A stretch of DNA of 64,000 nucleotides from Candidatus Omnitrophota bacterium (lineage in GTDB: Bacteria; Omnitrophota; Gorgyraeia; JABMRN01; RBG-13-46-9), in assembly GCA_013203315.1 (NCBI GenBank), contig JABMQJ010000012.1:6402-70401 (forward strand), written 5' to 3'. Both the position numbers and the translations under genes were made by a program. Shown piece after piece: positions 3,642-38,944 of this stretch (its first letter is position 1; the number at the start of each line of letters is the position of its first letter). The notes beneath the pieces were generated by a model, which was given only the letters and a program-made list of their open reading frames with translations, made no database searches and was not told the DNA's origin.

Positions 3642-3656
3642 AAGAGGAGGCGGATT

Positions 3657-23037: not shown

Positions 23038-23061
23038 CGATAGCAGAAAGGCTATCTCCAT

Positions 23062-24806: not shown

Positions 24807-24836
24807 TTCGAACACTCCTTTTTCTGCGCACAAATT

Positions 24837-24865
24837 TGACAAAAGTTAGTTCCTAATGTATACTT
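24837..24865 (+). promoter_or_regulatory. Sigma70-type promoter TTGACA-17-TATACT upstream of cheR-TPR
   Basis: ttgaca at 24837-24842, 17-nt spacer, tatact at 24860-24865. An ~85-nt AT-rich leader follows, with ttgagtt x2 and cataata x2 direct repeats. Confidence 0.55.
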
Positions 24866-24950: not shown

Positions 24951-26465
24951 ATGCCTGCAACAGTAGATATAAGAAACCAATTTAAGACTTTTGTAGCCAA
25001 CCGTGGCGGCCTATATTTTAAGGACCACGACCTAAAGAACCTCGAAAGCGCTATCTCCGCACGAATGAAATCCCGCGGAATGCATTCATTTCCCGGATAC
25101 TATGCATACCTTACAACCGCCGAAGAGAAAGAAGATGAGTTCAGAGAACTCTTAAATCTTCTAACGATAAACCACACATACTTCTTCAGGAACGAACCAC
25201 AATTCAAGGCTCTGAGGGAAAAGGTTTTGCCCAATGTGATTGAGAAAAAACGACAAGAAGCAAGCGCATCAGGCGAGGAAAAACCCGCGTTACGCATATG
25301 GAGCGCCGGTTGTGCGACAGGACAGGAGCCATATTCAATTGCAATGATAGTGCGTGATCTTATAGAAGACATAGATGATTGGGACGTACAAATACTCGCC
25401 ACTGACGCGTCCGAAAATGCATTACAGAATGCACGAAAAGGCACATATAGCCAGAACTCGGTAAAGCATGTTGATGAAACGCGCCTCGCGAGATATTTTA
25501 CAAAAGAAGGGAATACCGAGCGCGATACAAAATACCGGATACAGGAAAACATTAGAAGAATGATTAATTTTGCCTTTTTCAATCTCATGGAGGAAAGTTT
25601 CCCTACGGGTTTTGATATCATATTTTGCCGCAACGTTGTCATATATTTCGAATTTGAAACAACTGTAAAGGTTATGAATAAGCTTTATTCCGGCCTTTTA
25701 GACGGCGGTTACATGTTCATAGGCTATTCCGAAACGCTTCAATTCATGCAGGACAGGCTTCAGATGATAAGTTGGGAAGACGCGATATATTATCACAAGG
25801 CCAAAGGAAAAGCACCTGTTTATACGGAATTCGCCGAACCCCTGCCTGCTAAAGAGGAGATAGATCTAGATAAGGTCCTGGAAGAAATCTCAAAGGCAGA
25901 AGCCACCGCGAACTTAGAGGCCGAGACAAAAAAAGCGCCGCCTACTCAAAAAATAGAGAATATGCTCATTCAGATTATTAAAGCCATGCACCTAAAGCAA
26001 TACGACAAGGCCCTCTCACTTATTGAAGAAGCAAGTTCAGTGGACGATAAAGTGGTCGACCCTCATTATCTGGCGGCCGAGATTTTTATAAACCAGGGAA
26101 AAAGAGGCGAGGCAAAGACAAGGCTTTCTACCGCGCTAAAACTCGATTCGCTTTTCGCGCCGGCGCATTATCTTTATGGTTGTATATACGTGGAGGAAAG
26201 CGATCTTGATAACGCGAAAAAAAGTCTGAAAAAAGCCTTATTCATAGATAAAAATTTCTTATTGGCGCATTTTTATCTTGCTCAGGTTTTCAAAACCGAG
26301 GGACGCACAAAGGATGCGATCAGGGAATACAGAAATAGCCTGAAACTCTTGTCCGGGGCTGCGCCCGGAGATATTATAGCCTATAGCGGCGGGTTTAATG
26401 CTGCTACATTCATGAGTGTTTGCAGGGATAATCTGGAAAGACTAAAAATAGAATACGGAGATTAA
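24951..26465 (+). CDS. CheR-type protein-glutamate O-methyltransferase fused to C-terminal TPR repeats
   Basis: CheR N-terminal helical domain. SAM-binding RIWSAGCATGQEPYSIA. Residues ~330-504 form TPR helices (LAAEIFINQGKRGEA, YLYGCIYVEESDLDNA, HFYLAQVFKTEGRTKDA). Confidence 0.85.
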   Translation: MPATVDIRNQFKTFVANRGGLYFKDHDLKNLESAISARMKSRGMHSFPGYYAYLTTAEEKEDEFRELLNLLTINHTYFFRNEPQFKALREKVLPNVIEKKRQEASASGEEKPALRIWSAGCATGQEPYSIAMIVRDLIEDIDDWDVQILATDASENALQNARKGTYSQNSVKHVDETRLARYFTKEGNTERDTKYRIQENIRRMINFAFFNLMEESFPTGFDIIFCRNVVIYFEFETTVKVMNKLYSGLLDGGYMFIGYSETLQFMQDRLQMISWEDAIYYHKAKGKAPVYTEFAEPLPAKEEIDLDKVLEEISKAEATANLEAETKKAPPTQKIENMLIQIIKAMHLKQYDKALSLIEEASSVDDKVVDPHYLAAEIFINQGKRGEAKTRLSTALKLDSLFAPAHYLYGCIYVEESDLDNAKKSLKKALFIDKNFLLAHFYLAQVFKTEGRTKDAIREYRNSLKLLSGAAPGDIIAYSGGFNAATFMSVCRDNLERLKIEYGD

Positions 26466-26467
26466 TT

Positions 26468-26647
26468 ATGAAACTAACAGTATTTACTCTGAAAGATAAG
26501 GAATACGGAGTTGACATGATGGTAACGGCTTCAGCCGACGCAGTGGACGCAGTAAAGGCAAGAAAAATGGGCGCGGACGATTATTACGCAAAGACGAGCG
26601 ACTTATCCATTTTAGTCAAAGCTATAAAAAAAATAACTGAAATATAA
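26468..26647 (+). pseudogene. 59-aa ORF matching only the C-terminal half (beta4-alpha5) of a receiver domain. Truncated REC remnant or non-phosphorylatable fragment.
   Basis: VDMMVTASADAVDAVKARKMGADDYYAKTSDLSILVKAIKKI aligns to VIIFTAKPE...AGADDYILKPFD...KIEKLL of the downstream CheY-like genes. The N-terminal DD and phospho-Asp region is absent. Too short for the ORF track. Confidence 0.45.
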
Positions 26648-26661
26648 AAAAACACTTAAAT

Positions 26662-29600
26662 ATGGAAAAGCAAATCAAACATAAGACTAGCTTGAGGCGA
26701 AAAATCGCGTTTCTTATTGTATTTTCCTGTCTTATCGTTATGCTTACAGGTTTTGGGTTGGGGTATTTATGGGGATTCAATTTGTTGCGTACTACAATAG
26801 GCGAAAGCCATGTCAGCATGGCCGATTTAATTTCAGAATCTGTTAGCAGAATTCTCAACGAAGAAGTCTCGGATCTTCACATATACATGTCGCTTCCGTT
26901 ACGCAGGGGCATGATTGAAAAGCAAAATCTCAAATATAGAGGAATGAATGAAGAGGCCGTTAGCAGATATTTTAAAGATATGGACGAAAAGTGGAAAGGG
27001 ACACAAAAAGACAATCCTTTGATCGAAGAATTGTTAGCGACAGAAACCAGCAACAGGTTGAAAAGCTTAGTAGCCGGAGATGCCGGTATTGCAGAAATTT
27101 TCATGACTGATGTGCAAGGAGGGTTAGTCGCTTCCTCAAACAAAACAAGCGATTTTTACCAGGCAGACGAAATCTGGTGGCAAAAAGCTTTTAACAACGG
27201 AAAGGGCGCTGACTTTATCGGGGATGCAGAACTTGATACGTCGTCTAATGTAATAAGCATAAGCTTAGCCGTCCCCATAAGAGGCGATTCAGGAGAAGTG
27301 ATAGGTGCCTGCAAGGCTGTCATGGATGTGAACCGTTTGTTTGAGCCCTTAAAAGATTTTGTTATCGGAAAAACAGGTCATGCAGTGTTGATTAACAAAA
27401 AAGGCGTTATCATTTTTCAAGAGGACATCACACCTTTAAGCCAAAGCCTAACAAGCGAAGAAAATTTGCAAAAAATATTAGAAACCCCAAAAGGGTGGAT
27501 AATTACAAGCAAACCTAACGAGCATAACAAAAAAACATTTATTGCGTTCACGGCAAGCAATTACTCTCTCTTTTTGCGAGAAGGGATACTGTGGAAGGTA
27601 TGCGTAGGCCAAAATGCCGATGAAGTGTTTGCGCCATTGAATACTTTAATGTTTCAGCTTTTTATAGTTGTCATTCTTGCCGCCGCAATTCTTGTTTTGG
27701 CTAGTGCGGTGTTTAGTGCAGCGTTCATTAAGCCGCTAATTGAGCTTCGCAATGCTACGGAGAAAATCGCGAAGGGTGATTTAGACTACCATATAGAAGT
27801 AAAAACGGGCGACGAAATCGAAGAATTTGCCGATTTTTTCAACCGGATGACTGACGAGTTAAAAAAATCTACTAGATCCGTCAGTGCGCTAAATAAAGAA
27901 ATCACCGAGCGTAAGAAAGTAGAATATGCACTTAAAGAAAGCGAGGAAAGATATAGAGTGCTGTACGATTCCTCGCGCGATGCCATTATGACATTGATGC
28001 CCGGGGGGAAATTTTTAAGCGGCAATCCTGCTACATTAGAAATGTTTGGGTGCAAGGATGAAAAAGAATTTATTTCTAAAACCCCAGCTGATTTATCACC
28101 GGAATATCAACCCGATGGGGAACTTTCTAGCGTAAGAGCGAAGCAGATGATGGACATGGCAATGGAAAAAGGTTCGCACTTTTTTGAATGGACGCATAAG
28201 AACGTAGGCGGAAAGAATTTTTTCGCTACAGTATTATTGACCCGAATGAAAATGGGAAATAAAGAATTTTTGCAAGCGACAGTCCGTGATATTTCCGTGT
28301 CTAAGAATATAGAGACTAAAGTAAGGCAAGCAGCAGAAGAATGGCAGCGCACATTTGATTCGATAGCGGATTTGGTATTTATTCAGGATACGAATTTCGT
28401 TATACTGAAAGCAAACAGGGCGTTTGCCGAAGCGATTAAAATGAAACCCGAAGACATTATCGGCAAAAAATGTTATGATTTATTGCATGGTCGGGATAAG
28501 CCATGGCCAAACTGTCCGTTTGAAAAAACAAAACACGACTCGAAGGCCCACACCGAAGAGGTGGACGACCCAAATATTGGCCTACCACTTTCGGTTTCAA
28601 CTTCGCCGATATTTGACAAAAAAGGTAAATTGGTGGGCAGCGTGCATATTGCCCAGGACATAAGAGCCAGAAAGAAAGCAGAGAAAGTCTTTCAGGACAC
28701 AAAAGACGAATTGGAAAAACAGACCTGGGGGCTCAGAAAAAGCAACGAAGCCATCAAGTCTCTCTATAAAGAGTTGGAGGGAAGCAATAAAGAACTCCAG
28801 AAGTTGGACCAATTAAAATCCGATTTCGTGTCAACCGTTTCACACGAATTACGCACGCCGCTATCTATAACTAAAGAAGGCATATCCTTGGTCCTGGATA
28901 GGGTAACCGGTGATATTAGCGGAAAACAGGAAAAAATACTCTCTACGGCAAGGGATAACATAGATCGCTTAGCTCGAATAATAAATGACCTACTTGATAT
29001 ATCCAAAATCGAAGCAGGCAAGGTCGATTTGAAAAAAGCCCTCGTGGATCTTTCAGGTAAGATAAAGGACGACTGCACATTATGGAAAATAGATGCGGAT
29101 AAAAAAAATCAAACCTTACAAATTTCCGTGCCGGATTCCCCGGTTAGCATTTATGTTGATCCTGACAAGATGGACCAAATTCTTCTTAATCTCGTATCGA
29201 ATGCCGTAAAATATACCCCTGATAAAGGAAAAATAAAGGTTGAGTTAAAAGATAAAGAAGGCGAGGTAGAGGTTTCTATTTCCGATACAGGCGTTGGCAT
29301 TGCCAAGGAGGATTTTCATAAGTTATTCGGTAAATTTCAACAGTTCAGCAGGGCCATAGGCCCAGGGGCAAAAGGCACGGGGCTTGGCCTTGCCATTGTT
29401 AAGCAGCTTGTTGAAATGCACAAGGGTAACATACGCGTTGAAAGCGAGCTCCACAAAGGTAGCAAATTTATCTTTTCTATTCCCAAGCTGGATGTTGAAG
29501 AGGTGTTTAGGGAATATATTAGTAGCGGGATAAAACAGGCAGCCGATAGAAAAACGCATCTTTCACTTCTTATTGTGCACGTGGTGAATTTCAAGCAAAT

Positions 29601-29910
29601 TTTTGAAGAGCTGGGCTATGATAAGGCGCACGCTTTACTTAAGGACATTGCGAAAGAGACAAAGGGATCGCTGCGTCGCCGTGCGGATAGCGTGGTAAGA
29701 GATACGGGCGATCTTATTGTGCTTCTATTCGATACGCGCAAGGAAGATGTGGCGGTTGTGAGGAAGAGGGTTGAAAAAACAATTAGCGATTATCTATCCG
29801 GCGGCAAAGAAAAATTTCTTAAAAATATCAGCATAACTTTCGGTAACGCAACATATCCCGATGAGGCAATCACTGATGAGGAATTACTAAAAAAGGCAAG
29901 ACCCGCGTAA
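26662..29910 (+). CDS. Multi-sensor histidine kinase: TM-periplasmic Cache-like domain-TM-HAMP-3 PAS-HisKA-HATPase_c, plus a C-terminal degenerate GGDEF domain with a preserved RxxD I-site
   Basis: 1082 aa. Two TM segments flank a ~280-aa extracytoplasmic domain, followed by HAMP (GDLDYHIEVKTGDEIEEFADFFNRM). H-box SHELRTPLS, G-box GTGLGLAIVKQL. The tail LSLLIVHVVNFKQIFEELGYDKAHALL...RRRADSVVRDTGDLIVLLFDT aligns to [27 protein letters not shown]...[21 protein letters not shown] of the downstream GGDEF protein. GGDEF is replaced by DTGDL but RxxD is kept. No receiver domain. Confidence 0.85.
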   Translation: MEKQIKHKTSLRRKIAFLIVFSCLIVMLTGFGLGYLWGFNLLRTTIGESHVSMADLISESVSRILNEEVSDLHIYMSLPLRRGMIEKQNLKYRGMNEEAVSRYFKDMDEKWKGTQKDNPLIEELLATETSNRLKSLVAGDAGIAEIFMTDVQGGLVASSNKTSDFYQADEIWWQKAFNNGKGADFIGDAELDTSSNVISISLAVPIRGDSGEVIGACKAVMDVNRLFEPLKDFVIGKTGHAVLINKKGVIIFQEDITPLSQSLTSEENLQKILETPKGWIITSKPNEHNKKTFIAFTASNYSLFLREGILWKVCVGQNADEVFAPLNTLMFQLFIVVILAAAILVLASAVFSAAFIKPLIELRNATEKIAKGDLDYHIEVKTGDEIEEFADFFNRMTDELKKSTRSVSALNKEITERKKVEYALKESEERYRVLYDSSRDAIMTLMPGGKFLSGNPATLEMFGCKDEKEFISKTPADLSPEYQPDGELSSVRAKQMMDMAMEKGSHFFEWTHKNVGGKNFFATVLLTRMKMGNKEFLQATVRDISVSKNIETKVRQAAEEWQRTFDSIADLVFIQDTNFVILKANRAFAEAIKMKPEDIIGKKCYDLLHGRDKPWPNCPFEKTKHDSKAHTEEVDDPNIGLPLSVSTSPIFDKKGKLVGSVHIAQDIRARKKAEKVFQDTKDELEKQTWGLRKSNEAIKSLYKELEGSNKELQKLDQLKSDFVSTVSHELRTPLSITKEGISLVLDRVTGDISGKQEKILSTARDNIDRLARIINDLLDISKIEAGKVDLKKALVDLSGKIKDDCTLWKIDADKKNQTLQISVPDSPVSIYVDPDKMDQILLNLVSNAVKYTPDKGKIKVELKDKEGEVEVSISDTGVGIAKEDFHKLFGKFQQFSRAIGPGAKGTGLGLAIVKQLVEMHKGNIRVESELHKGSKFIFSIPKLDVEEVFREYISSGIKQAADRKTHLSLLIVHVVNFKQIFEELGYDKAHALLKDIAKETKGSLRRRADSVVRDTGDLIVLLFDTRKEDVAVVRKRVEKTISDYLSGGKEKFLKNISITFGNATYPDEAITDEELLKKARPA

Positions 29911-29937: not shown

Positions 29938-30312
29938 GTGGCAAAGATGAAAATACTACTTGTTGACGATGAGCCAATGTTTATCGAAATAATGAAAACA
30001 AGGCTGGAGGCCGACGGCTGCGAGGTAATTACCGCTTCCGACGGAAAACAGGCGCTTGACAGGATAGCGCAAGACAAACCTGATGCGGTTTTGCTGGATA
30101 TTCTTATGCCCGTATTGGACGGGATGTCTGCGCTTGAAATGATAAGAAAGAAGGATAAAGAATTACCCGTATACATGCTGACTGCTTTCTCGACCGAAGA
30201 TAGAATTAAAGAGGCAAAAAGGGCCGGCGCTTCCGGGTTCCTTGTTAAAGACGGTGAGTTGAAAGAAGAAATTGGCGGTATAGTAGATCAATTAAAGAAA
30301 AATAAATCCTAA
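29938..30312 (+). CDS. CheY-like single-domain response regulator (1 of 4 tandem paralogs)
   Basis: GTG start. KILLVDDEP, LLDILMPVLDG, phospho-acceptor Asp, T and K positions conserved. 124 aa. Confidence 0.85.
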   Translation: MAKMKILLVDDEPMFIEIMKTRLEADGCEVITASDGKQALDRIAQDKPDAVLLDILMPVLDGMSALEMIRKKDKELPVYMLTAFSTEDRIKEAKRAGASGFLVKDGELKEEIGGIVDQLKKNKS

Positions 30313-30330
30313 CATGAAAAAGGAGGGTGC

Positions 30331-30714
30331 ATGAATAAGAAGAAAATCCTGATAATAGACGATGAAGTGGACCTGGTTGATTTAGTCAAGATGAGGCTTG
30401 AGGTGGCGAACTATTATGTGTTACCGCTTTATACGAGTACGCGCAGCCTCGAGATAGCGAAAAGAGAAAAACCCGACCTGGTTCTTCTGGATGTAATGAT
30501 GCCGGATAAAAACGGGTATGAGGTCTGCAAGGAGCTAAAAGCCGACGAGGCAACGCGCCATATCCCCGTAATTATATTTACCGCAAAACCTGAACAGAAA
30601 GAACGCATTAAAAAAGACGCTGAATTGGCCGGAGCCGATGACTACATCTTGAAACCTTTTGACCCGGCGGATTTAACTAAAAAGATCGAAAAACTCCTAA
30701 AAAAGGGGGTGTAA
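30331..30714 (+). CDS. CheY-like single-domain response regulator (2 of 4)
   Basis: ILIIDDEVDLV, LLDVMMPDKNGYEV, IPVIIFTAK, GADDYILKPF. 127 aa. Confidence 0.85.
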   Translation: MNKKKILIIDDEVDLVDLVKMRLEVANYYVLPLYTSTRSLEIAKREKPDLVLLDVMMPDKNGYEVCKELKADEATRHIPVIIFTAKPEQKERIKKDAELAGADDYILKPFDPADLTKKIEKLLKKGV

Positions 30715-30715
30715 A

Positions 30716-31093
30716 ATGAGTAAGAAAAGAATATTAGTCATTGATGATGAGTTGGAATTAGTGGCCATGCTAAAAATCAGGCTGGAAGCAAATAACTACG
30801 AGGTTGTTACAGCAGGTGACGGCGAAGAGGGTATGGAAAAGGCTAAAACCGAAAAGCCGGACTTAATCATTCTGGACATCATGATGCCTAAAAAAGACGG
30901 CTACACATTTATTAAGGAAATGAGAACCGAGCAAGGTATAAAAAGTACGCCTGTTATCATACTTACCGCTAAGGCGAAAATGCAGGATTTGTTTGCAATC
31001 GAAGGCGCGAAAGATTACATTGTAAAGCCTTTCGAAGCTACGGAACTCCTGGAGAAGATAGCAAGATATTTTAAGAATACAGGAAGCGAGTAA
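30716..31093 (+). CDS. CheY-like single-domain response regulator (3 of 4)
   Basis: ILVIDDELELV, ILDIMMPKKDGY, PVIILTAK, KDYIVKPF. 125 aa. Start 2 nt after the upstream stop. Confidence 0.85.
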   Translation: MSKKRILVIDDELELVAMLKIRLEANNYEVVTAGDGEEGMEKAKTEKPDLIILDIMMPKKDGYTFIKEMRTEQGIKSTPVIILTAKAKMQDLFAIEGAKDYIVKPFEATELLEKIARYFKNTGSE

Positions 31094-31104
31094 AGAACCG
31101 GAGG

Positions 31105-31485
31105 GTGAAAATGCCTGATAAAAAGAGGATCTTAATAGTCGACGACGAAATGCAATTGGTGGAAATGGTAAAGATACGCCTCGAGGCTAACGGCTACGAA
31201 ACTTTAGCAGCTTATGACGGCCAGACAGGGCTGAATATGGCAAAAAAAGAAAAACCCGATTTAATCATATTGGATTTGATGATGCCCAAAATGGACGGAT
31301 ATAAAGTTTGTGCCCTTTTGAAAAGAGATTCCAGATACTCAAAAATTCCCGTACTGATATTTACGGCAAAGGCGCAGGAAGAAGACGCAAAAATGAGCGA
31401 AGAAGCCGGTGCTGACGCATACCTTGTCAAACCCTTTGAACCGGAGGCACTACTAGGCAAAATAAGCGGATTATTGAAGGAGTGA
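31105..31485 (+). CDS. CheY-like single-domain response regulator (4 of 4)
   Basis: ILIVDDEMQLV, ILDLMMPKMDGY, PVLIFTAK, ADAYLVKPF. 126 aa. Stop overlaps the start region of pilB. Confidence 0.85.
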   Translation: MKMPDKKRILIVDDEMQLVEMVKIRLEANGYETLAAYDGQTGLNMAKKEKPDLIILDLMMPKMDGYKVCALLKRDSRYSKIPVLIFTAKAQEEDAKMSEEAGADAYLVKPFEPEALLGKISGLLKE

Positions 31486-31487
31486 AC

Positions 31488-33182
31488 ATGGCAAAAAAGC
31501 AGAAAAAGTCCCTCGGTGAGAGCCTCGTGGACGAAGGTATCATAACTCAGGATCAGCTGAAACAGGCGCAGGCAGAAGAGAAGCGCGTGGGTCAGCGTTT
31601 ACGTAAAGTGCTTGTTAAGATGGGGTTGATTGACGAAGGGGATCTCGTATCTTTTTTAAGCGACAAGTTGGGTGTGCCCAGGATAGAGCTTGGTAATTAT
31701 TTGATTGACGCGAAGATAATTGATTTGGTGCCCGAGGCGCTGGCCAGAAAACACGAACTTATTCCTGTATTTAAAATTGGGGATCGCCTTACGTGCGCGA
31801 TGCTTGATCCATGGAACATATTTGCGCTTGATGAGGTAAGAATGAAAACGCATTTAACGGTTGAGCCTGCTGTGGCGACAGAAGGCGAGATAAAGAAGGC
31901 CCTTAATCAATATTACAGCGCAAGGGGCAACATGGAAGACCTTATAAAAACTTTAGACCAAAAAGACCTGGGATTAGGAGAGGGTAAAGAAATCGACGCT
32001 AAAAAGCTACAGGGAATAGTGGAGGAGCCCATAGTAATAAGGCTTGTTAACATGATTATTTCAAAGGCCGTGCAGGAAAGGGCCAGTGACATTCACATTG
32101 AACCGGAAGAGAGCGTTCTTAAAACGCGATACAGGGTAGACGGCATGCTGCATGAAGCGCCGTCTCCGCCCAAGCACCTTCAATCTGCGGTGATATCGAG
32201 AATTAAAATAATGGCGGATCTCGATATTGCTGAAAGAAGGAAACCGCAGGATGGGCGTTTCAGCATTAAAATGGAAGGTAAACAGATAGATGTTCGCGTA
32301 TCCTGTATCCCCACCATATACGGAGAAAACGTTGTTTTGCGGCTTCTGGATACTTCGAGCACGCTTATTAGCTTGAAAGACATGGGATTCTCTAAAGAAG
32401 TGCTGGAAAAATACGAGAAGCTTGTCACGAGGCCGCATGGAATAATTCTTGTTACCGGGCCTACCGGAAGCGGAAAAACTACGACACTCTACGCCTCGCT
32501 CGATAAAATAAACACGGTGGAGAAAAATATCATAACAATTGAGGACCCGGTTGAATACAAGCTCGAAGGGATAAGGCAGACCCAGGTAAACCCCAAGGTT
32601 GACCTTACGTTTGCCAACGGACTCCGCTCTATACTGCGGCAAGATCCGGACATAATAATGGTAGGTGAAATGAGGGACTTCGAGACAGCTGAGATTGCAA
32701 TTCAGGCGGCGTTAACGGGCCACCTTGTTTTCTCAACGCTTCACACCAATGACGCCCCGGGCGCGGTGACACGAATGATCGATATGCGAGTCGAGACATT
32801 TCTTGTATCGTCTTCGGTAATTGGCGTGTTGGCCCAGAGGCTTGTAAGAACAATATGCCTTGCGTGCAAGGAAAAATATCAGCCGACAAAAGAAGAGTTG
32901 AAAGATATAGGGCTCACGGGTGATGAGAAAATAGATTTCTATAGAGGCAAGGGTTGCGATAAATGCATGAAAACAGGCTACAAGGGTAGAATCGGTATTT
33001 TTGAACTTATGATGGTGGATGACGAGATAAAGAACTTAATCATTGCGAAAACAACAGCCGAGGAGATTAGGAAAAATGCCCTTTCAAAAGGAATGATATC
33101 ATTGCAGGACGACGGAATCGAGAAAATAAAACAAGGACGTACAACAGTAGAGGAAGTTCTGCGCGTAACCCAGGAGGAATAA
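31488..33182 (+). CDS. pilB: Type IV pilus assembly ATPase (PilB/GspE family) with N-terminal T2SSE_N domain
   Basis: ATG at 31488 after a GAAGGA SD. Walker A GPTGSGKTTT, Asp/His boxes, tetracysteine CLAC...CDKC. N-terminal ~150 aa is a GSPII_E_N-like domain. Confidence 0.9.
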   Translation: MAKKQKKSLGESLVDEGIITQDQLKQAQAEEKRVGQRLRKVLVKMGLIDEGDLVSFLSDKLGVPRIELGNYLIDAKIIDLVPEALARKHELIPVFKIGDRLTCAMLDPWNIFALDEVRMKTHLTVEPAVATEGEIKKALNQYYSARGNMEDLIKTLDQKDLGLGEGKEIDAKKLQGIVEEPIVIRLVNMIISKAVQERASDIHIEPEESVLKTRYRVDGMLHEAPSPPKHLQSAVISRIKIMADLDIAERRKPQDGRFSIKMEGKQIDVRVSCIPTIYGENVVLRLLDTSSTLISLKDMGFSKEVLEKYEKLVTRPHGIILVTGPTGSGKTTTLYASLDKINTVEKNIITIEDPVEYKLEGIRQTQVNPKVDLTFANGLRSILRQDPDIIMVGEMRDFETAEIAIQAALTGHLVFSTLHTNDAPGAVTRMIDMRVETFLVSSSVIGVLAQRLVRTICLACKEKYQPTKEELKDIGLTGDEKIDFYRGKGCDKCMKTGYKGRIGIFELMMVDDEIKNLIIAKTTAEEIRKNALSKGMISLQDDGIEKIKQGRTTVEEVLRVTQEE

Positions 33183-34402
33183 TGCCTATATATACGTACA
33201 AAGCCCGAGACACGATGGGCAAATCAGTGCGAGGCAAGATGGAGGTTGATACCAAAGCCGAACTTATCGATAGGCTGCACAAAATGGGCTATATGACGAC
33301 GCAGGTGACAGAGGCCCGTTCCACCGGTGACCTTAACATCGAAACCCTACTCGACAAGATAAGACCCGTAGGCACTGAGCACATGCTCATGTTTTATGTT
33401 CAGCTTTCAAATATGATCAGCGCCGGTATACCTATTTTAACCTGTTTAGATACGCTCAGTAATCAGATTGAAAATAAGAAATTGAAAGACGCTGTTGGTA
33501 GTATTGCCAGAAGCGTCGGCGGAGGGGAAAGCCTTTCAAAGGCATTCAGGGACCAGCCCCGGGTATTCCCGCAACTCTTTTCCAATATGGTAAAAGCCGG
33601 AGAAGTCAGCGGAAAACTGGATACAGTATCGGTAAAATTTGCCGAATATTTCGAACACCAGGAAGACCTGCGCCAAAAAATAAGGAGCGCGCTTTTCTAC
33701 CCCATGATACTTTTGGTGGCAGGCGTAGCCGTTATGCTTTTTATAGTAACCTTTATCATACCGCTGTTTGCCCAGATTTTTGCAAAAAGCGGCATAGCCT
33801 TACCGGCCCCGACACTCCTGCTTTTAAAAATTGGCCTTTCAATTAAGCATTTCTGGTATTTAGGCATTCTGGCTTTCGTCGGATGTTTTTTAGTGGTTAA
33901 ATTTTACATAAATACTGAAATTGGACGGCTTAATTTCGATAAACTAAAATTGAAAATACCCATAATCGGATCGTTGCATCGCAGGGCAGCGCTCGCCAGC
34001 TTTACAAGGACCCTGGGGACCCTTACAGATAGCGGGGTTCCTATTCTCGAATCCCTGGATATCACAAAGTCAGTAATGGGAAACGAGGTGCTGTCCCGTG
34101 TTATTGCCAACGCGCGTAGCGCGGTTGAAAAAGGGGAGAAATTATCCGGGCCGCTTAAGATAAGCGAAGAGTTTCCGCCTGATGCTGTCCAGATGATTTC
34201 AGTAGGAGAGGAAACAGGTAATCTGGATACAATGCTGAATAAGGTCGCGGATTTTTATGACATGTCAGTGGGGTACTCCATAAAAAAACTGACAACCGTG
34301 ATTGAGCCCCTGTTTTTAGTTATCATGGGTAGCCTTATAGGATTTATCATGATCTCCATACTTTTGCCGATGTTTGACATGATAAAGGTTATTAAGCATT
34401 AG
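33182..34402 (+). CDS. pilC: Type IV pilus inner-membrane platform protein (PilC/GspF family)
   Basis: 406 aa. Two GspF repeats with 3 TM. Start overlaps the pilB stop (ATGA-type). Confidence 0.9.
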   Translation: MPIYTYKARDTMGKSVRGKMEVDTKAELIDRLHKMGYMTTQVTEARSTGDLNIETLLDKIRPVGTEHMLMFYVQLSNMISAGIPILTCLDTLSNQIENKKLKDAVGSIARSVGGGESLSKAFRDQPRVFPQLFSNMVKAGEVSGKLDTVSVKFAEYFEHQEDLRQKIRSALFYPMILLVAGVAVMLFIVTFIIPLFAQIFAKSGIALPAPTLLLLKIGLSIKHFWYLGILAFVGCFLVVKFYINTEIGRLNFDKLKLKIPIIGSLHRRAALASFTRTLGTLTDSGVPILESLDITKSVMGNEVLSRVIANARSAVEKGEKLSGPLKISEEFPPDAVQMISVGEETGNLDTMLNKVADFYDMSVGYSIKKLTTVIEPLFLVIMGSLIGFIMISILLPMFDMIKVIKH

Positions 34403-34411: not shown

Positions 34412-34630
34412 GTGGCGAAAATGGAAGTATTTCTAGGTATTGCTTCAATATTTTTTCTTATTTTTGGCGCGATGCTTTTGCTTTCACCGAATATCGTTGA
34501 ACGAATTTCCAAAGCGACAAATAAGGTGCTTTTTAATCTGGATGACAAAATACAGTCTACGAGAAGACCCCTGGGAATTCTGCTATTGGCAATATCGATT
34601 TTTTTATGGTATACTGCGCTACATAAGTAA
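34412..34630 (+). CDS. Small 2-TM membrane protein (72 aa) between pilC and the major pilin
   Basis: Strong SD AGAGGGGG immediately upstream. Two hydrophobic helices (FLGIASIFFLIFGAMLLL, LGILLLAISIFLWY). Function unknown. Confidence 0.4.
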   Translation: MAKMEVFLGIASIFFLIFGAMLLLSPNIVERISKATNKVLFNLDDKIQSTRRPLGILLLAISIFLWYTALHK

Positions 34631-34645: not shown

Positions 34646-35104
34646 ATGATGAAGAAGAAAGGTTTTACACTGATTGAGCTTTTAATTGTGATAGCGGTTA
34701 TTTCTATCCTGATTGGTATCGCGCTTCCGCGTTTCAGGGGCATGCAGGAAGAGGGTTTGGTTGCGCAGGCCAAGGGAGAGTTAAGGACGCTCCAAACAGC
34801 CATAGAAAGTTACTATATCCACAATAGCAGCGCCTATCCGACAGATAGTGCTACCTGGCAATCAGATACAGATAGCCTTACCACTGCTACCCCGCTAATA
34901 GTAGGTACGGCTTTAATTGATCCGTTTTCCAGTGCAGGGGCGCAATATCAGCTGGTGTATGATACAAATACGGCTTATTATGCTATGTATTCAGTGGGTC
35001 CGGGCGGCACCGGGAGCGTTACCGCAGTTAGCACTGCCGGCGGTGTTACTGATACACCCAACTGCATTTATGTTTCGAACGGAGAAAGAGACACGACGCC
35101 ATAA
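34646..35104 (+). CDS. Type IV pilin, candidate major pilin (class III signal peptide, N-methylation motif)
   Basis: MMKKKG|FTLIELLIVIAVISILIGIALP with Glu at +5. 152 aa. Confidence 0.8.
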   Translation: MMKKKGFTLIELLIVIAVISILIGIALPRFRGMQEEGLVAQAKGELRTLQTAIESYYIHNSSAYPTDSATWQSDTDSLTTATPLIVGTALIDPFSSAGAQYQLVYDTNTAYYAMYSVGPGGTGSVTAVSTAGGVTDTPNCIYVSNGERDTTP

Positions 35105-35121
35105 TTTAAAGAGGGTACTTG

Positions 35122-35477
35122 TGAAAAATAATGGCTTTACCTTGCTGGAAATCCTTATGGCTATCGTACTTTTTACGGGAAGCGTTAGCCTTATTGTGAT
35201 GCTTTTCGCGAACGCTTTGGTTGCCAGCACTGATGCTGAAAATACGACAATCGCCATGAACTTAGCGCAAGGAAAAATGGAAGAGGTACGAAACCTTTCC
35301 TTCGCCAGCATTGCAGATGAAGCCAAGGCCGCCGTAACCGGTTTTACCGGATTTCAGAGAGAGGTTGCGGTGACAACGTCCGAAACAGACCTAAAGCAGG
35401 TAACGGTTACAACATACTGGACATATAAAGGCGGTGAAGTAGAAGTGCCGCTCGTAACCTATATTAGCAAAAATTAA
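35122..35477 (+). CDS. Minor (pseudo)pilin with prepilin-type N-terminus
   Basis: GTG start after an AGAGGG SD. VKNNG|FTLLEILMAIVLF, E at +5. 118 aa. The ORF-track 186-aa version (34917..) overlaps the pilin gene in another frame and was not used. Confidence 0.7.
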
Positions 35478-35478
35478 A

Positions 35479-35997
35479 ATGAAAAAGGGAATCACGTTAA
35501 TCGAGCTTATTATTAGCGTAACTCTTTTTTTAATACTTGGTAGCGTTGTTCTTTGGGTTTTTGTAGTGGGTTTAAGATCTTGGGATTCGGGTCTGAATAG
35601 GGCTAACATACGCCAGAGTGTCAATGTAGCGCTTGAGAGGATGACGCGGGAGCTCGGCCAGGCAAGCGAGGTTACTCAAGCCAAAGCCGGTAACATTACG
35701 TTTCAGGCAGATTTAGACGAGAATGGCACCGTGGAAACCATAACGTTTGATGTTACAAATGCCGATAACCTGGAGCGCACCGAGAGTGGCCGAGACATTC
35801 TTATGGTTAGCAATGTGCAAGACTTTACACTGGGTTATTATCTGGAATCGGGCAATGACACTCTTTTAAGCTCTGTTAATTCTCCTGCTAACCGGGATAC
35901 TATACGGGTTGTTGTTATATCAATTACCGTAAGCGAAGGTGACGAAACGCTTACATTTAGCACAAGCGCTTATACACGAAATCAGTCAAATGATTAA
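35479..35997 (+). CDS. Minor (pseudo)pilin with prepilin-type N-terminus
   Basis: MKKG|ITLIELIISVTLFLILGSVV, E at +5. 172 aa. Confidence 0.75.
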   Translation: MKKGITLIELIISVTLFLILGSVVLWVFVVGLRSWDSGLNRANIRQSVNVALERMTRELGQASEVTQAKAGNITFQADLDENGTVETITFDVTNADNLERTESGRDILMVSNVQDFTLGYYLESGNDTLLSSVNSPANRDTIRVVVISITVSEGDETLTFSTSAYTRNQSND

Positions 35998-36790
35998 AAG
36001 AGAAAAAGGCGCGATTTTAATAATGGTTTTTGTTGTTATGGTTGCTCTAAGCGGTGTGGCATTTGCTTTTTTGACAATGATTAGCCAGGAGACAAAGAGT
36101 GCGGGAACGGGACTCCTAAATATGCAAGCATTTTATATAGCGGAAGCAGGCCGCGCAAAGGCGAGGTGGGCACTTACTACAGACGGGCAAACTGCCGGTG
36201 TCTGGGGTGAATCCGATACTTCCCTGGGAGAGGGGACGTATAACGTTACTACTGTTGATAATGGTGATGGTACAATCACTATTACATCAGATGGGTATAT
36301 CCCCGATGACACCAGTCCACTCATAATGAGAAGGGTTTTAGAGAAAGATATAACTACGGTTTCCGGTTCATCTAATAATCTTGCTTTAGACGCCATAGCC
36401 TCGGATTCATCTACATTTGGCGGTAATGTTGCCGCAAATGCCAACGACGACAATAGTTCTACGAGATGGCGCTCAGGTGTTAATGGCAATTCGCAGCTTC
36501 AATTAGATTTTGGAAGCGCAACAGAATTCGATAAGGTTGTGTTTGACGAAAGGCAATTTAGTTCATATGCAGTGCAATATTCAAGTAATGCTAGCACGTG
36601 GAATTCGGTGACTGGTGCGACTACAACAGTAGCCGGAAATGTGACTACGGTTACTTTTGATGGGGTTACAGTCAGATATGTGAGACTTGACATTAATGGT
36701 AATAGACCGTCGGTATATGAATTTGAAACATATCTAACAACTGCAACAGGCATCGGGCTCGAAAGAGGCGAATTCGCTACTTCCTGGTAG
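35990..36790 (+). CDS. PilX-like minor pilin fused to a C-terminal F5/8 type C (discoidin/CBM32-like) carbohydrate-binding domain
   Basis: ATG 35990 (ATGATTAA overlap with the upstream stop). N-terminus MIKREKG|AILIMVFVVMVALSGVAFAFL lacks E+5, typical of PilX/minor pilins. Residues ~130-265 (ASDSSTFGGNVAANANDDNSSTRWRS...QLQLDFGSATEFDKVVFDE...YAVQYSSNASTWNSV...VRYVRLDINGN...YEFETY) match the discoidin/CBM32 pattern (N-x-T-R-W, LDLG, RYVRL, aromatic-E-aromatic-E). Confidence 0.7.
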   Translation: MIKREKGAILIMVFVVMVALSGVAFAFLTMISQETKSAGTGLLNMQAFYIAEAGRAKARWALTTDGQTAGVWGESDTSLGEGTYNVTTVDNGDGTITITSDGYIPDDTSPLIMRRVLEKDITTVSGSSNNLALDAIASDSSTFGGNVAANANDDNSSTRWRSGVNGNSQLQLDFGSATEFDKVVFDERQFSSYAVQYSSNASTWNSVTGATTTVAGNVTTVTFDGVTVRYVRLDINGNRPSVYEFETYLTTATGIGLERGEFATSW

Positions 36791-36791
36791 C

Positions 36792-38396
36792 ATGAAGGGT
36801 ATAATGGGATTTATTGCATTTTTTAAAAAAGATTACATAGTTGGAATAGACATAGGAACCTCGTCTGTAAAAATCGCGCAATTTAAAGAAACGGAATACG
36901 GGTTAAATCTTGTCAGGGCAGAGTTGCGGGAGTTTAAGCCAACCGTTGACAAGGCCATTTACGAAAAAGAAGTTTTATCCGCGCTCAAGGCCTTATTTAA
37001 AGGTATAGACACCAAAAAATCTCAAATCATCGCACATATAAATTGCCCCATGACAACCGTGAAGACTCTTAAGGCGCCCTATATGCCAAAATCAGAATTG
37101 CGCGAAGGCATAAAACTGGAGGTAAAGAATTATTTCCCGTTTCCGATAGATGATTCCCTCTTGGATTTTGAAATACTGGGCGATGTCGTAGAAAAGGGCG
37201 TGAGAAAATATGAAGTAGCGGTAGCGGTCTCACCCGCTATGACAGTTGACAAGTATTTGGCGCTACTTAATAAAGCAGGAATTAAGCCCGCTTCTTTTGT
37301 CCCCTGCCCGTATGCCCTGCAGAAATTAGCAGAACAGTTACCACAAAAGGGAGAAGGCGCTACAACGTGTTTTGTCGATATAGGCGAAATTCATACGGAA
37401 CTTGTAATTTTAAAAGGCAAAACGTTAATGTTCAGCCGCAAAATTCCTGTTGCCGGAAAGGATTTTACAAAAGCCATGACAGGGGTCCTTGTCTCCGATA
37501 GAGGAAAGACCGAACTTAGTATAGATGAGGCGGAAAAAATAAAGCGTGAAACAGGTATTCCGGAAGTCGCCGAAGAGAAAATTATAGATAATAAAATTTC
37601 TACCACGCAGATCTCATCAATGCTTCGGACACCGCTTGAGCAGTTTGTAAGCGAGATGGAAAGGTGTTTTGATTATTACAGAGAAGAAACCGGTGGCGGG
37701 AAAATAGATTCTGTTGTGTTGTTCGGCGCCGGCGCATCTTTGACGGGCTTTATCAAGTTTCTGTCCGAAGAGTTAGGTATAGAGGTTAAGTTGGGAGACC
37801 CTACCGAAGGAATCAGGTGCGAAAAGGATGCGATTCCGGAAAGAGACAAAAATTCTTATAGGCTGGATCTGGCGATAGGCGCAGCTTTGGGCCGGGCCAG
37901 GGGCATAAATCTTCTTCCTCCTGAAATTAAAGAAGCAACAAAAAAGGTTGTTACGCGCGGGACAATTGAAGCAGTTGCTACGGCGGTAATACTCGTATCG
38001 CTACTCCTTTATATAGGAATGAGAATACAAATCGGAAATTTTGATAAAAGAATTTCAGTAGCAAAACTGGAACTAGCTAGCTTACAACCCGCGCTCAAAA
38101 AAGCCGAAGCCCACCACGCGGCAAATATGGTTCTGGTAGATGAGCCGCACTGGGAAGATGTTTTCAGAGAATTGGCTAATCTCATACCGAAAGATACCCA
38201 TCTTACAAATGTTAGCATGAGAGATAGCGTGATTACCATGAAAGGCATTGTAGCCGCCGAGGATGGCGAAAGCCATCTCTCGGAGTTCATGCTTACGCTT
38301 GAACGAGGAATATTTAAGAACGTAAAACTTGTAAAGACAAGAGATTTAAGCGATAAATCAGGTAATGAATTTGAGCTTGAGTGTCAGGTAGATTGA
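36792..38396 (+). CDS. PilM-PilN fusion: actin-like ATPase-fold PilM domain, then a TM helix and PilN-like periplasmic region
   Basis: 534 aa. N-terminal IVGIDIGTSSVKIA (actin/FtsA-like fold) through ~aa 370. Then TM AVATAVILVSLLLYIGMRI and a coiled-coil/periplasmic tail. Confidence 0.8.
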   Translation: MKGIMGFIAFFKKDYIVGIDIGTSSVKIAQFKETEYGLNLVRAELREFKPTVDKAIYEKEVLSALKALFKGIDTKKSQIIAHINCPMTTVKTLKAPYMPKSELREGIKLEVKNYFPFPIDDSLLDFEILGDVVEKGVRKYEVAVAVSPAMTVDKYLALLNKAGIKPASFVPCPYALQKLAEQLPQKGEGATTCFVDIGEIHTELVILKGKTLMFSRKIPVAGKDFTKAMTGVLVSDRGKTELSIDEAEKIKRETGIPEVAEEKIIDNKISTTQISSMLRTPLEQFVSEMERCFDYYREETGGGKIDSVVLFGAGASLTGFIKFLSEELGIEVKLGDPTEGIRCEKDAIPERDKNSYRLDLAIGAALGRARGINLLPPEIKEATKKVVTRGTIEAVATAVILVSLLLYIGMRIQIGNFDKRISVAKLELASLQPALKKAEAHHAANMVLVDEPHWEDVFRELANLIPKDTHLTNVSMRDSVITMKGIVAAEDGESHLSEFMLTLERGIFKNVKLVKTRDLSDKSGNEFELECQVD

Positions 38397-38415
38397 AGTA
38401 GCAACAAGGGGAGAC

Positions 38416-38943
38416 ATGATAAAAATAGGAAATATTGAAATAACGCCGGAAAAAAAGATTATTGCGATAATTACGGCAGTTTTAGTTTTGGCAATAACAA
38501 TATACGTTATTTTCTTCGCTCCGCTTTTTGTAAAACTAAAAATAAAATTTTCCGAATACATGGCAATTGAGCATGAGGTGCGCCAATACAGGAGCATTAT
38601 AGAGTCTGCAGGAAAAGTATATAGCGAGAGAACCCTTCAGAGTGAAGAAGACGTTTCGCGCTCAATAGACGAGCTGGCCAAACACGGAAAAGTAAAAGAT
38701 GTGAAATTTATCTCCATAAATCCTGAAAAAGTCGTAAGGAAAGAAGATACGCAGTATAAGGTATTACCTGTTGAGATGGAACTCGAGTCTACATATGCGG
38801 GCCTCGGAGTATTCCTGGGGTCACTGGATGACCTGGAAAAGACCCTGGTTAAGGTAAAGAGTTTTAACATTTCTCATGATAAAAATGATCCAACGAAATT
38901 TATAACGGATCTTGAAGTAGAAGTATACCTCTCGGAGAAATAA
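38416..38943 (+). CDS. PilO-like pilus assembly protein (single N-terminal TM, periplasmic domain)
   Basis: 175 aa. TM IIAIITAVLVLAITIYVIFFAPLF, coiled-coil, ferredoxin-like C-terminus. Position after pilMN. Confidence 0.6.
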   Translation: MIKIGNIEITPEKKIIAIITAVLVLAITIYVIFFAPLFVKLKIKFSEYMAIEHEVRQYRSIIESAGKVYSERTLQSEEDVSRSIDELAKHGKVKDVKFISINPEKVVRKEDTQYKVLPVEMELESTYAGLGVFLGSLDDLEKTLVKVKSFNISHDKNDPTKFITDLEVEVYLSEK

Positions 38944-38944
38944 C

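Follow-up and report, generated by a model that had tools for sequence, protein, structure and literature searches.

Four intact genes for stand-alone receiver (REC) domains lie in tandem on the + strand at positions 29938-31485 of the window, a 64,000-nucleotide stretch of DNA from a Candidatus Omnitrophota bacterium, between the gene of a 1082-aa sensor histidine kinase and the pilus assembly gene pilB. The kinase and its receivers represent a recurring and uncharacterised module, of which this array is the longest version seen here. A four-member array had been flagged as unusual in the initial annotation; it is unusual in standing at the top of a range of one to four copies, but it is not a one-off. 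REC1-4 may form the receiver side of a branched module, in which one kinase serves several receivers and controls the adjacent type IV pilus post-translationally, together with c-di-GMP. This reading, whose functional steps all rest on inference from gene order and motifs, is given about an even chance of being correct.

The receiver array

The four genes are: (i) REC1 (29938-30312, 124 aa, GTG start, Pfam E = 5e-29), with the acceptor Asp54 at nt 30097, (ii) REC2 (30331-30714, 127 aa, OmpR/PleD type, E = 4e-25), with Asp54 at nt 30490, (iii) REC3 (30716-31093, 125 aa, OmpR/PleD type, E = 1.5e-27), with Asp54 at nt 30875, and (iv) REC4 (31111-31485, 124 aa, E = 2e-29), with Asp55 at nt 31273. 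The open reading frames and Pfam matches confirm the earlier claim that receiver-only genes stand in tandem directly 5' of pilB, and the independent gene calls of JGI, ENA and Logan on identical contigs return the same four genes. REC4 could start at 31105 (126 aa) or 31111 (124 aa). The most likely start is the ATG at 31111, 6 nt 3' of GGAGG, and that of pilB is most likely the ATG at 31488, 6 nt 3' of AAGGAG, with public calls in agreement on both proteins (124 and 564 aa). With these starts and ribosome sites, the REC4 stop precedes pilB by 2 nt and does not overlap the pilB start region as first described; the two would overlap only if the GTG at 31482 were the start of pilB.

From the kinase through REC1, REC2, REC3 and REC4 to pilB, the gaps are 27, 18, 1, 17 and 2 nt, so that the spacing of 2-19 nt first given from REC1 onwards is amended to 18, 1, 17 and 2 nt. 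A Shine-Dalgarno sequence is present 5' of each receiver gene, and a terminator scan of the stretch from the kinase stop to pilB revealed no terminator-like site on the + strand. The terminator and promoter counts were not above shuffled expectation, so the scan says only that there is no obvious terminator within the array. Given the gaps of 1-27 nt and this lack of a terminator-like site, it is plausible that the kinase through pilB form one transcription unit.

The sole Pfam match of each receiver is PF00072 (Response_reg), which covers nearly the whole protein (E = 4e-25 to 2e-29) with 88.6-102.2 bits against a gathering cut-off of 30.2 bits, far beyond chance. At 124-127 aa and without an output domain, REC1-4 are single-domain response regulators. 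The phosphorylation pocket, comprising the DD acidic pair, the acceptor Asp (D54/D55), Thr and Lys, is complete in all four, as had been noted for the Asp and the Thr/Lys residues; it is also complete in all 40 array members examined, some of which have E-D in place of D-D. REC1 has the peculiarities of K-D for K-P and of Phe for Tyr at the switch position.

The receivers were at first described as CheY-like, a label that applies in the generic sense only. Their best matches are the receivers of RpaA, PhoP, PleD and MtrA (E = 1e-30 to 1e-25), whereas CheY entries follow at E = 1e-15 to 1e-19, with the exception of one Leptospira CheY (6azr, 8e-24); REC2-4 are thus nearer to PhoB/RpaB/MtrA/PleD than to most CheY entries. 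NCBIfam assigns no family to any of the receivers, or to the 336-aa and 143-aa proteins of the locus. Its best partial matches are to the receiver halves of PhoB, RpaB and MtrA (PhoB, 112.6 bits against a cut-off of 296), and the C-terminal winged-helix (Trans_reg_C) domain of the OmpR/PhoB family is missing. The scores for the DVU0259_DivK family (64-86 bits) fall below its cut-off of 160.

By sequence, the array is a set of old paralogues of two origins, with REC2-4 OmpR/PhoB/PleD-like and REC1 NarL-like, and not the single paralogous set that was first assumed. REC2, REC3 and REC4 share 45-55% protein identity pairwise, while REC1 is 31-38% identical to the others; the earlier estimate of about 40-50% by eye roughly fits REC2-4 but not REC1. 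At the DNA level the four genes are 58-65% identical and have no long stretches in common, with alignment confined to the ribosome-binding site and the N-terminal KILxVDDE region; thus, they do not derive from recent duplication or gene conversion. The same is concluded from the slot-specific orthologues (70-75% identity) in the related loci L085 and L175. REC2, REC3 and REC4 are 70%, 70% and 74% identical to slots 2, 3 and 4 of L085, and REC2 has positional orthologues in both L085 and L175 (70-71%). Identities of 70-74% to the matching L085 slots, compared to 55% or less among REC2-4, mark the receivers as old, position-specific paralogues, and the initial view that the array is not a recent duplication is borne out. 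REC1-4 are also under purifying selection, with dN/dS of 0.109, 0.069, 0.056 and 0.110, respectively, against a relative with the same array (PilB 0.05 and PilC 0.10 in the same comparison). Values of 0.06-0.11 are not those of decaying or pseudogenised copies. Only a fifth copy is a relic: a 59-aa ORF at 26468-26647 (+ strand) that retains the beta4-alpha5 half of a REC domain (REC profile positions 81-119, E = 1e-8) without the phospho-acceptor Asp. Public contigs carry a gene call for the relic, which is also present in the close relative L168.

The partner kinase and its c-di-GMP setting

The large kinase (26662-29910, + strand) is membrane-bound, with an outward-facing dCache sensor followed by HAMP, two PAS, HisKA and HATPase domains and a C-terminal degenerate GGDEF domain (nt 29500-29901). 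The HisKA domain includes SHELRTP (His728, nt 28840-28860), with an H-E-x-x-T-P kinase/phosphatase motif, and the protein is presumed to act as kinase/phosphatase for the receiver array. When aligned with the intact cyclase encoded further along the operon, the C-terminal domain has an I-site RxxD (R1006-R-A-D1009) and, five residues on, TGDLI in place of GGDEF (nt 29677-29718, + strand), which by sequence is the signature of a c-di-GMP receptor and not of a cyclase. Similar tails are widespread in the module: 17 of 19 adjacent kinases have a C-terminal domain of c-di-GMP-receptor type (13 degenerate GGDEF and 4 PilZ). None of the 13 GGDEF-derived tails has an intact GGDEF motif, 11 of them keep RxxD, and the RxxxR and DxSxxG motifs are intact in the two PilZ tails checked (L086 and L125). 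The four equivalent kinases with PilZ in the same position lend indirect support to a c-di-GMP-binding role for the large-kinase tail. In its DHp region the large kinase is 72-82% identical to seven kinases of the module (L085, L087, L089, L169, L171, L172 and L175), while overall identity, measured for two of the seven, is only 48-57% and the sensor domains differ.

The pilus operon that follows the array begins with a PilB/GspE-type assembly ATPase (31488-33182, + strand, 564 aa; T2SSE E = 7e-141 plus MshEN) that carries an MshE-type c-di-GMP motif (nt 31512-31664, residues 9-59; NF053729, 51.7 bits against a cut-off of 38). The 406-aa platform protein PilC (33182-34402, + strand; T2SSF E = 7e-62) is next, and Pfam and gene calls place the rest of the operon at 34646-39376 (+ strand), with a major pilin, minor pilins, a PilX-like protein with F5/8 type C, a PilM-PilN fusion, PilO and the 143-aa protein. 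A 436-aa GAF histidine kinase (39376-40686, + strand) and a REC-GGDEF diguanylate cyclase (40687-41556, + strand; GGDEF E = 2e-39) complete the series. With an intact GGDEF (nt 41314-41328) and an RKSD I-site (nt 41287-41298), the cyclase is a likely local source of c-di-GMP.

A CheR-TPR methyltransferase gene (24951-26465, + strand) is an accessory, non-core neighbour. It is missing from the close relative L168, and neither a methylation substrate nor Che partners were found for it in the annotated window (1-52.1 kb); a homologue, 57% identical, resides in the Che cluster of L174 beside a PilZ-tailed kinase and two receivers. The best promoter-like site of the region (24836-24864), from a scan whose counts were not above shuffled, is located just 5' of this gene.

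The number of signalling proteins in this region raises an alternative in which the receivers work as a phospho-hub or relay, shuttling phosphoryl groups among the large, GAF and 336-aa kinases and to the REC-GGDEF cyclase, so that the output is the level of c-di-GMP read by the MshE motif of PilB and the motor itself is untouched. Three kinases and five receiver domains are present within 22-41.6 kb; a further receiver, unrelated to these, is found at 3657-4040. The large and GAF kinases share S, E and G at His+7, +11 and +12 of DHp alpha1, and no sensor domain could be recognised in the 336-aa kinase, which has two membrane helices. A sensor-less kinase of 265 aa is similarly found between pilB and pilC in L172, the feeding of phosphate back into kinases has a precedent in MrrA (PMC5964349), and a relay would account for the occurrence of the module beside non-pil operons. 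By contrast, L175 keeps three receivers without a GAF kinase or cyclase nearby, many loci (e.g., L090, L125 and L173) pair one kinase with one receiver and lack a second kinase as relay partner, and Pfam detects no Hpt protein in the locus. The relay is regarded as having a minor chance, well short of that given to direct control of the pilus.

Recurrence of the module and proposed control of the pilus

REC4 belongs to a family of more than 100 clusters of 120-127-aa proteins (66-92% identity), the named members of which are Omnitrophota. REC1 belongs to a family of its own with about 70 clusters (52-89% identity), members of which come first after the kinase in the arrays of L168, L171 and L172. 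A metagenome scan with the REC4-family alignment gave, among the matches listed, 80 loci, of which about 65 are ordinary OmpR-type regulators (~230 aa, 48% identity or less) and about 15 are family members; full-length OmpR-type proteins of this length turn up only at 48% identity or less. A REC4-family member is present in every array and is the last of the run in 14 of 15 arrays of two or more receivers, L092 being the exception.

Homologous arrays are usually linked to pil genes, a point on which the initial annotation had staked its interpretation. A REC4-family gene ends an array of one to four receivers just 5' of pilB or pilC in 16 of 22 informative loci (12 adjoining pilB, one a kinase gene away and three, L096-L098, directly preceding pilC), although the loci were picked by REC4 similarity and size of contig, so that 16/22 is no unbiased census. 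The REC4 family tracks the tailed kinases (17/19) even more closely than it tracks the pil genes. Seen from the motor, no receiver precedes pilB in any of the 80 nearest PilB loci of species-representative genomes, the two nearest sequenced Omnitrophota pil operons (L005 and L006, PilB 72-75% identical) among them. Other REC4-family genes are found 5' of a PilZ gene and Wza/Wzc/Wzy polysaccharide genes (L169 and L171), of a MoxR/Bat operon (L170) and of a Che cluster (L174). In L175, a kinase and three receivers, including the REC2 and REC4 orthologues, lead directly into SNF-rplM-rpsI-arg genes at a site that is syntenic with the window but has no pil operon.

These exceptions are what would be expected if the kinase and array were an autonomous module for some other envelope or surface function that merely tends to sit beside pil operons: the syntenic L175 array lacks pil genes, the L005 and L006 operons lack an array, and the polysaccharide, Bat and Che contexts are of other kinds. 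Such incidental adjacency is nonetheless judged unlikely, as the linkage to pil genes in 16 of 22 loci extends across differing sensor domains, tails and REC4 identities (50-91%), the distance to pilB is 2-12 nt in most loci, and receiver-only regulators that act on PilB are documented (PMC11973254, PMC13507683). The same range of contexts can be read more broadly, with the REC4 family as a general adaptor, mainly of Omnitrophota, that would couple c-di-GMP-gated kinases to the pilus motor, Wzx/Wzy export and Bat/MoxR, and with the arrays as combinatorial switchboards. If so, the extra receivers might address other parts of the machine or heterodimerise with REC4 via a PhoB-like alpha4-beta5-alpha5 face, and the number of receivers in an array would encode how many outputs or logic states one sensor has. 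This extension is speculative and is held to be about as doubtful as incidental adjacency.

Least probable, at a slim chance, are pure phosphate sinks, i.e., receivers without targets that drain the kinase to sharpen or shorten signalling to another output regulator. While the presence of several receivers per kinase here fits such a role, in the single-receiver loci L090, L125, L173 and L086 the kinase has no other regulator beside it than the REC4-family protein, which thus cannot be only a sink. The H-E-x-x-T phosphatase motif of the kinase makes a sink less necessary, and the conservation of the REC4 family, with 28 invariant and 28 nearly invariant columns beyond the active site among 36 members, is strong and family-specific. 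It is possible that some members of the array are phosphate sinks or antagonists.

In the favoured reading of post-translational pilus control, the phosphorylation of REC1-4 would be set by the kinase, which would sense an external ligand as well as c-di-GMP bound to its C-terminal domain. Phosphorylated REC4 would bind the PilB/PilC motor and change its activity or assembly; EmvR, DrdR and PixG~P are reported to bind PilB, DrdR also PilT, and the first two to alter ATPase activity. REC1-3 may compete for phosphate, serving like PixH as antagonists or sinks, or may pass the signal on to additional targets. The extra receivers might thereby provide the lineage with a more finely graded or multi-output switch.

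Omnitrophota are uncultured and often ultra-small, and type IV pili are thought to be important for their attachment. Literature searches found nothing on the regulation of Omnitrophota type IV pili; the locus offers a concrete, testable regulatory unit, in which a kinase with a c-di-GMP-receptor-type tail is joined to one to four bare receivers, the last nearly always adjoining the motor genes. Two unrelated tail domains, a dead GGDEF with an I-site and PilZ, occupy the same position of the kinase in different lineages. So far, receiver-only post-translational control of pilus motors has been described in Xanthomonas and cyanobacteria; should the receivers act on PilB/PilC, it would be extended to a two-component system of classical, non-chemotaxis type in a phylum far removed from these, and the natural series with one, two, three and four receivers would be a chance to study how extra receivers reshape a signalling pathway.

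Comparison with known receiver systems

The closest functional analogue is the PixL-PixG/PixH (Tax1) system of Synechocystis sp. PCC 6803, in which an effector receiver and a competing receiver act on a pilus motor. PixL phosphorylates the two receivers PixG and PixH; once phosphorylated, PixG binds PilB1, and it is opposed by the CheY-like PixH (PMC11181946). However, PixL is of CheA type and takes its input from an MCP-like photoreceptor, while the kinase here is a HisKA sensor of the classical kind; the two receivers of Tax1 include the PATAN-bearing PixG, whereas the array consists of up to four bare OmpR/PhoB- or NarL-like domains. The PilG and PilH receivers of the Pil-Chp system (Pseudomonas and Xanthomonas) are also stand-alone and control type IV pilus function antagonistically (PMC7029496). 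Unlike REC1-4, these are CheY-type proteins whose genes belong to a chemosensory cluster (ChpA, PilJ and PilI) and do not adjoin pilB. The initial annotation had likened the array to PilG/PilH or PixG-type regulators, and neither assignment stands: no CheA, CheW or MCP domain occurs within 1-52.1 kb, the kinase is of HisKA type, the receiver sequences are not CheY-type, and REC1-4 are receiver-only proteins of 124-127 aa with no N-terminal PATAN domain as in PatA/PixG.

Receiver-only proteins that bind the motor are described from Xanthomonas. EmvR of X. oryzae binds PilB and represses its ATPase, and is linked to a classical kinase in a 'one-to-two' arrangement (PMC11973254), while the REC-only DrdR of X. 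campestris binds PilB and PilT and alters PilB ATPase activity (PMC13507683). Both are encoded by orphan genes that are not beside pilB, in a different phylum, and DrdR is a double-receiver protein; by contrast, REC4 is 2 nt from pilB. REC4 may be a PilB-binding receiver of the EmvR/DrdR type, a role to which its gene adjacency points.

The kinase itself has, in the form of TGDLI + RRAD, the same kind of signature as SgmT of Myxococcus xanthus, for which c-di-GMP was found to affect localisation and not kinase activity in vitro (PMC3509222). SgmT, however, is a hybrid kinase of the cytoplasm that senses through a GAF domain, has a receiver ahead of its GGDEF domain and signals to the DNA-binding DigR, whereas the window kinase is membrane-bound, has dCache and PAS domains but no internal receiver, and is accompanied by partners without DNA-binding domains. 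Another M. xanthus protein, the single-domain regulator EpsW, activates a Wzx/Wzy pathway by binding the initiating glycosyltransferase (PMC12802240), in parallel with the L169 and L171 arrays that precede Wzc/Wzy genes. EpsW is phosphorylated by the CheA-like DifE, and REC4 scores 73.5 bits against the NCBIfam EpsW cut-off of 200 and, thus, is not a member of that family. The template for the relay alternative is MrrA of Caulobacter, a stand-alone, single-domain receiver that links several kinases and feeds phosphate back into kinases acting as phosphotransferases, with a second receiver, LovR, serving as a sink (PMC5964349).

Four receiver genes between a sensor kinase and pilB

Between the gene of a 1082-aa dCache/PAS/HisKA kinase (26662-29910) and pilB lie four successive open reading frames (29938-31485, + strand) of 124, 127, 125 and 124/126 aa, termed REC1 to REC4, for each of which the PF00072 receiver is the sole Pfam match (E = 4e-25 to 2e-29). 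The same four genes are annotated publicly on identical metagenome contigs, where REC4 is 124 aa and PilB 564 aa. REC4 most likely starts at the ATG at 31111, 6 nt 3' of a GGAGG, and pilB at the ATG at 31488, 6 nt 3' of an AAGGAG; with these starts, 2 nt separate the REC4 stop from pilB, and the overlap given in the initial annotation disappears. The intergenic gaps from the kinase through REC1, REC2, REC3 and REC4 to pilB are 27, 18, 1, 17 and 2 nt, each gene of the string is preceded by its own Shine-Dalgarno sequence, and a scan of the + strand from the kinase stop to pilB found no terminator-like site. The phospho-acceptor residues are in place as initially annotated: the acidic pair, the acceptor Asp (D54/D55), the Thr and the Lys are kept in all four receivers. 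REC1 is peculiar in having K-D where the others have K-P and a Phe at the aromatic switch position.

The pairwise identity first estimated at about 40-50% is roughly right for REC2, REC3 and REC4 (45-55%) and too high for REC1, which shares only 31-38% with the other three. At the DNA level the four genes are 58-65% identical, and no more than the ribosome-binding site and first codons can be aligned. About 70 clusters, at 52-89% identity, make up a separate family to which REC1 belongs, with NarL/FixJ-type regulators as more distant relatives; REC2-4 are closer to the receiver halves of PhoB, RpaB, MtrA and PleD than to most CheY entries. By membership tests, the four genes are of the receiver superfamily and the stand-alone class. 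None reaches a curated NCBIfam cut-off, and the tests rejected the PilG/PilH, PixG/PatA, OmpR-family, DivK/DVU0259 and EpsW memberships, and so leave the PilG/PilH or PixG-type identity first suggested for the receivers without support.

A closely related locus, L168 (PilB 96.5% identical to that of the window), has the same four receiver genes. Between the two loci, dN/dS is 0.109 for REC1, 0.069 for REC2, 0.056 for REC3 and 0.110 for REC4, compared to 0.048 for PilB and 0.101 for PilC; therefore, purifying selection maintains all four receivers. In L085, a more distant locus (PilB 83%), REC2, REC3 and REC4 have counterparts in slots 2, 3 and 4 that are 70%, 70% and 74% identical, and slot 1 is unrelated to REC1 (33%). 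Thus, REC2-4 are an old set of three, each tied to its position, and the occupant of the first slot can change.

A 59-aa open reading frame (26468-26647, +) between cheR-TPR and the large kinase matches the C-terminal half of a receiver (beta4-alpha5) without the acceptor Asp, and probably represents what is left of a fifth receiver 5' of the kinase. L168 has a matching 58-aa relic at the same place, its C-terminal part conserved and its N-terminal part different, and an intact receiver is still present upstream of the kinase in L089 and L086.

Gene neighbourhood of the array

The exact REC4 protein carries the NCBI label 'Candidatus Omnitrophica bacterium', and the nearest PilB genes come from Omnitrophota MAGs. 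The genes around the array begin with a 336-aa membrane kinase, which has two membrane helices and in which no sensor domain could be recognised (22027-23037, +), and a repeat-rich protein, likewise of 336 aa, that falls into no Pfam or NCBIfam family (the pair spanning 22027-24072, +), followed by a retropepsin-like protein, a CheR-TPR methyltransferase (24951-26465, +), the receiver relic, the large kinase, REC1-4, pilB and pilC. Next come a small hydrophobic membrane protein of 69-72 aa (34421-34630, +), the pilin and minor pilins, a PilX-like minor pilin with an F5/8 type C domain (35939-36790, +), a PilM-PilN fusion of about 530 aa (36804-38396, +), PilO, a 143-aa protein without a family match (38945-39376), a GAF kinase, a REC-GGDEF cyclase, and SNF, rplM, rpsI and arginine biosynthesis genes. 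Elsewhere in the annotated 1-52.1 kb the genes are of housekeeping metabolism, and no MCP, CheA, CheW, PilT, secretin (PilQ) or prepilin peptidase was found in these 52.1 kb.

Several neighbours recur elsewhere. The 336-aa kinase and repeat-rich protein are conserved in L085 (L085:1-2595), where two extra stand-alone receivers lie between them; these are ~50% identical to a distant receiver of the window (3657-4040), which forms a separate pair with a kinase (2478-4040, +) between GAPDH and glycogen synthase within a glycolysis/glycogen gene run. The F5/8 type C (discoidin, carbohydrate-binding) domain of the PilX-like protein suggests a glycan-binding pilus tip, and the same architecture occurs in L168 and L172. 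PilM and PilN are fused in all related loci. The small hydrophobic protein recurs in the related pil operons of L005 (74 aa), L087 (74 aa), L172 (69 aa) and L173 (71 aa), in the last of these between pilB and pilC. CheR-TPR is absent from L168, and no MCP, CheA or CheW that could partner it was found in 1-52.1 kb; a 57% identical CheR-TPR (L174:7828-8934) lies within a full Che cluster (two CheW, CheA-REC and a 467-aa protein) directly 3' of a PilZ-tailed kinase and two receivers. Across the window (1-64000), nearly every plausible gene is on the + strand, GC skew is positive in every 2-kb bin and cumulative skew rises monotonically.

A recurring module and its partner kinase

REC4 homologues form >100 clusters of 120-127 aa at 66-92% identity, far nearer to REC4 than REC1-3 are. 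Their contexts were read from 22 informative loci chosen by likeness to REC4 and by long-enough contigs, a biased sample and no census. The REC4-family gene is followed: (i) directly by pilB in 12 loci (the window, L168, L085, L087, L088, L089, L090, L125, L099, L109, L172 and L173), (ii) by one kinase gene and then pilB in L086, (iii) directly by pilC in L096, L097 and L098, and (iv) by other genes in the remainder, namely a PilZ gene with Wza/Wzc/Wzy polysaccharide genes (L169, L171), a MoxR/Bat operon (L170), a CheR-TPR/CheW/CheA cluster (L174), SNF and ribosomal protein genes (L175), and a second receiver and then a kinase (L092). Pil linkage in 16 of the 22 answers the initial concern that homologous arrays might never adjoin pil genes. 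The last slot is a REC4-family member in 14 of 15 arrays of two or more receivers (the exception is L092), and REC1-family members, where present, occupy the first. Arrays are four long in the window, L168 and L085, three in L171 and L175, two in eight loci and one in about ten; the module recurs, and the window has it in its long form. In species-representative genomes, pilB lacks a preceding stand-alone receiver at all 80 of the nearest PilB loci; these include the two closest Omnitrophota genomes, in which pilB is preceded by an XRE-type gene or a short open reading frame that is PilZ-like by eye.

Variants of the module include a subclade (L096, L097, L098) that is 50-54% identical to REC4, with upstream kinases that bear an N-terminal receiver domain and with no pilB anywhere on the stretch covered. 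L172 has REC1-family and REC4-family receivers upstream of pilB, and a 265-aa HisKA and HATPase-only kinase inserted between pilB and pilC (L172:10556-11353). L175 (86-10280) shares similar housekeeping genes with the window (26662-47430), including SNF (85% identical), rpsI (81%) and argB (80%). Its dCache kinase, which is without the PAS and GGDEF-like parts, and three receivers are directly followed by SNF-rplM-rpsI-argCJB, without the ~10-kb pil operon, GAF kinase and cyclase. Thus, the pil operon was gained or lost as a block beside the array.

The large kinase of the window ends in a degenerate GGDEF domain (E = 5e-13), with TGDLI in place of GGDEF and with RRAD kept at the I-site position five residues upstream. 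Among 19 kinases adjoining REC4-family genes, 13 have a GGDEF-type tail (10 by profile match, 3 by alignment only), with the active site degenerate in all 13 and RxxD kept in 11; four end in a PilZ domain, with RxxxR and DxSxxG intact in both of those checked (L086, L125); and two (L090, L175) have no tail. Because two unrelated c-di-GMP-binding modules occupy the same position, the property under selection is likely the sensing of c-di-GMP by the kinase; the joint absence of pil operon, cyclase and kinase tail from L175 fits, as one case. In the window operon, PilB passes the MshE-type c-di-GMP motif model (51.7 bits, cut-off 38), and the GGDEF and RKSD motifs of the REC-GGDEF protein are intact. 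A rival and rather unlikely reading of the locus is a phospho-hub like MrrA (PMC5964349), with c-di-GMP as its output.

The H-[ED]-x-x-[TN]-P motif, a mark of bifunctional HisKA kinases, is present in every kinase of the region. In its DHp region, the large kinase is 72-82% identical to the kinases next to the REC4-family genes of L085, L087, L089, L169, L171, L172 and L175, whose sensor domains differ and whose overall identity is 48-57% in the two measured (L085, L175); the DHp identity is 32% to the 336-aa kinase and 11% to the kinase at 2478-3641. This likeness is consistent with a conserved kinase-REC4 interface, and is weak evidence because DHp regions are generally conserved. The GAF kinase and large kinase have alpha1 residues at His+7, +11 and +12 in common and, thus, may share targets.

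Proposed mechanism and comparison with known systems

Domain content and motifs, purifying selection on the four receivers and conserved gene order are read from sequence. On this basis, the kinase is predicted to integrate an outside ligand (dCache), cytoplasmic cues (PAS) and c-di-GMP (tail) and would set the phosphorylation state of REC1-4; phosphorylated REC4 would act post-translationally on PilB or PilC, while REC1-3 would compete for phosphate or branch the signal. We give this model as a whole an even chance. The main evidence against it is that the module also stands beside non-pil operons and that the syntenic site of L175 is without a pil operon; these sites would suit an autonomous module only incidentally adjacent to pil genes, which is unlikely given the predominance of pil-linked loci in the sample. 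That the receivers are pure phosphate sinks is a further reading, which we regard as improbable. The regularities of the module are clear and directly testable; every part is of a familiar class, and the function is predicted.

Stand-alone receivers that control the pilus motor are of an already known kind. EmvR, which receives its signal from a classical kinase in a 'one-to-two' design, binds PilB and represses its ATPase (PMC11973254), the REC-only DrdR binds PilB and PilT (PMC13507683), and phospho-PixG binds PilB1 and is counteracted by PixH (PMC11181946); the four receivers may work like PixG/PixH or EmvR. EpsW activates a Wzx/Wzy pathway through binding its first enzyme (PMC12802240), which fits the polysaccharide-linked REC4-family arrays. 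SgmT of Myxococcus is a degenerate-GGDEF, I-site-dependent receptor kinase (PMC3509222), and shares with the window kinase the degenerate GGDEF with an I-site motif. No description of this module came up in literature searches combining Omnitrophota with pili, response regulators or c-di-GMP. Compared to these systems, what appears new is the predicted wiring to a classical c-di-GMP-receptor kinase and the expansion, in an uncultured phylum, to up to four receivers.
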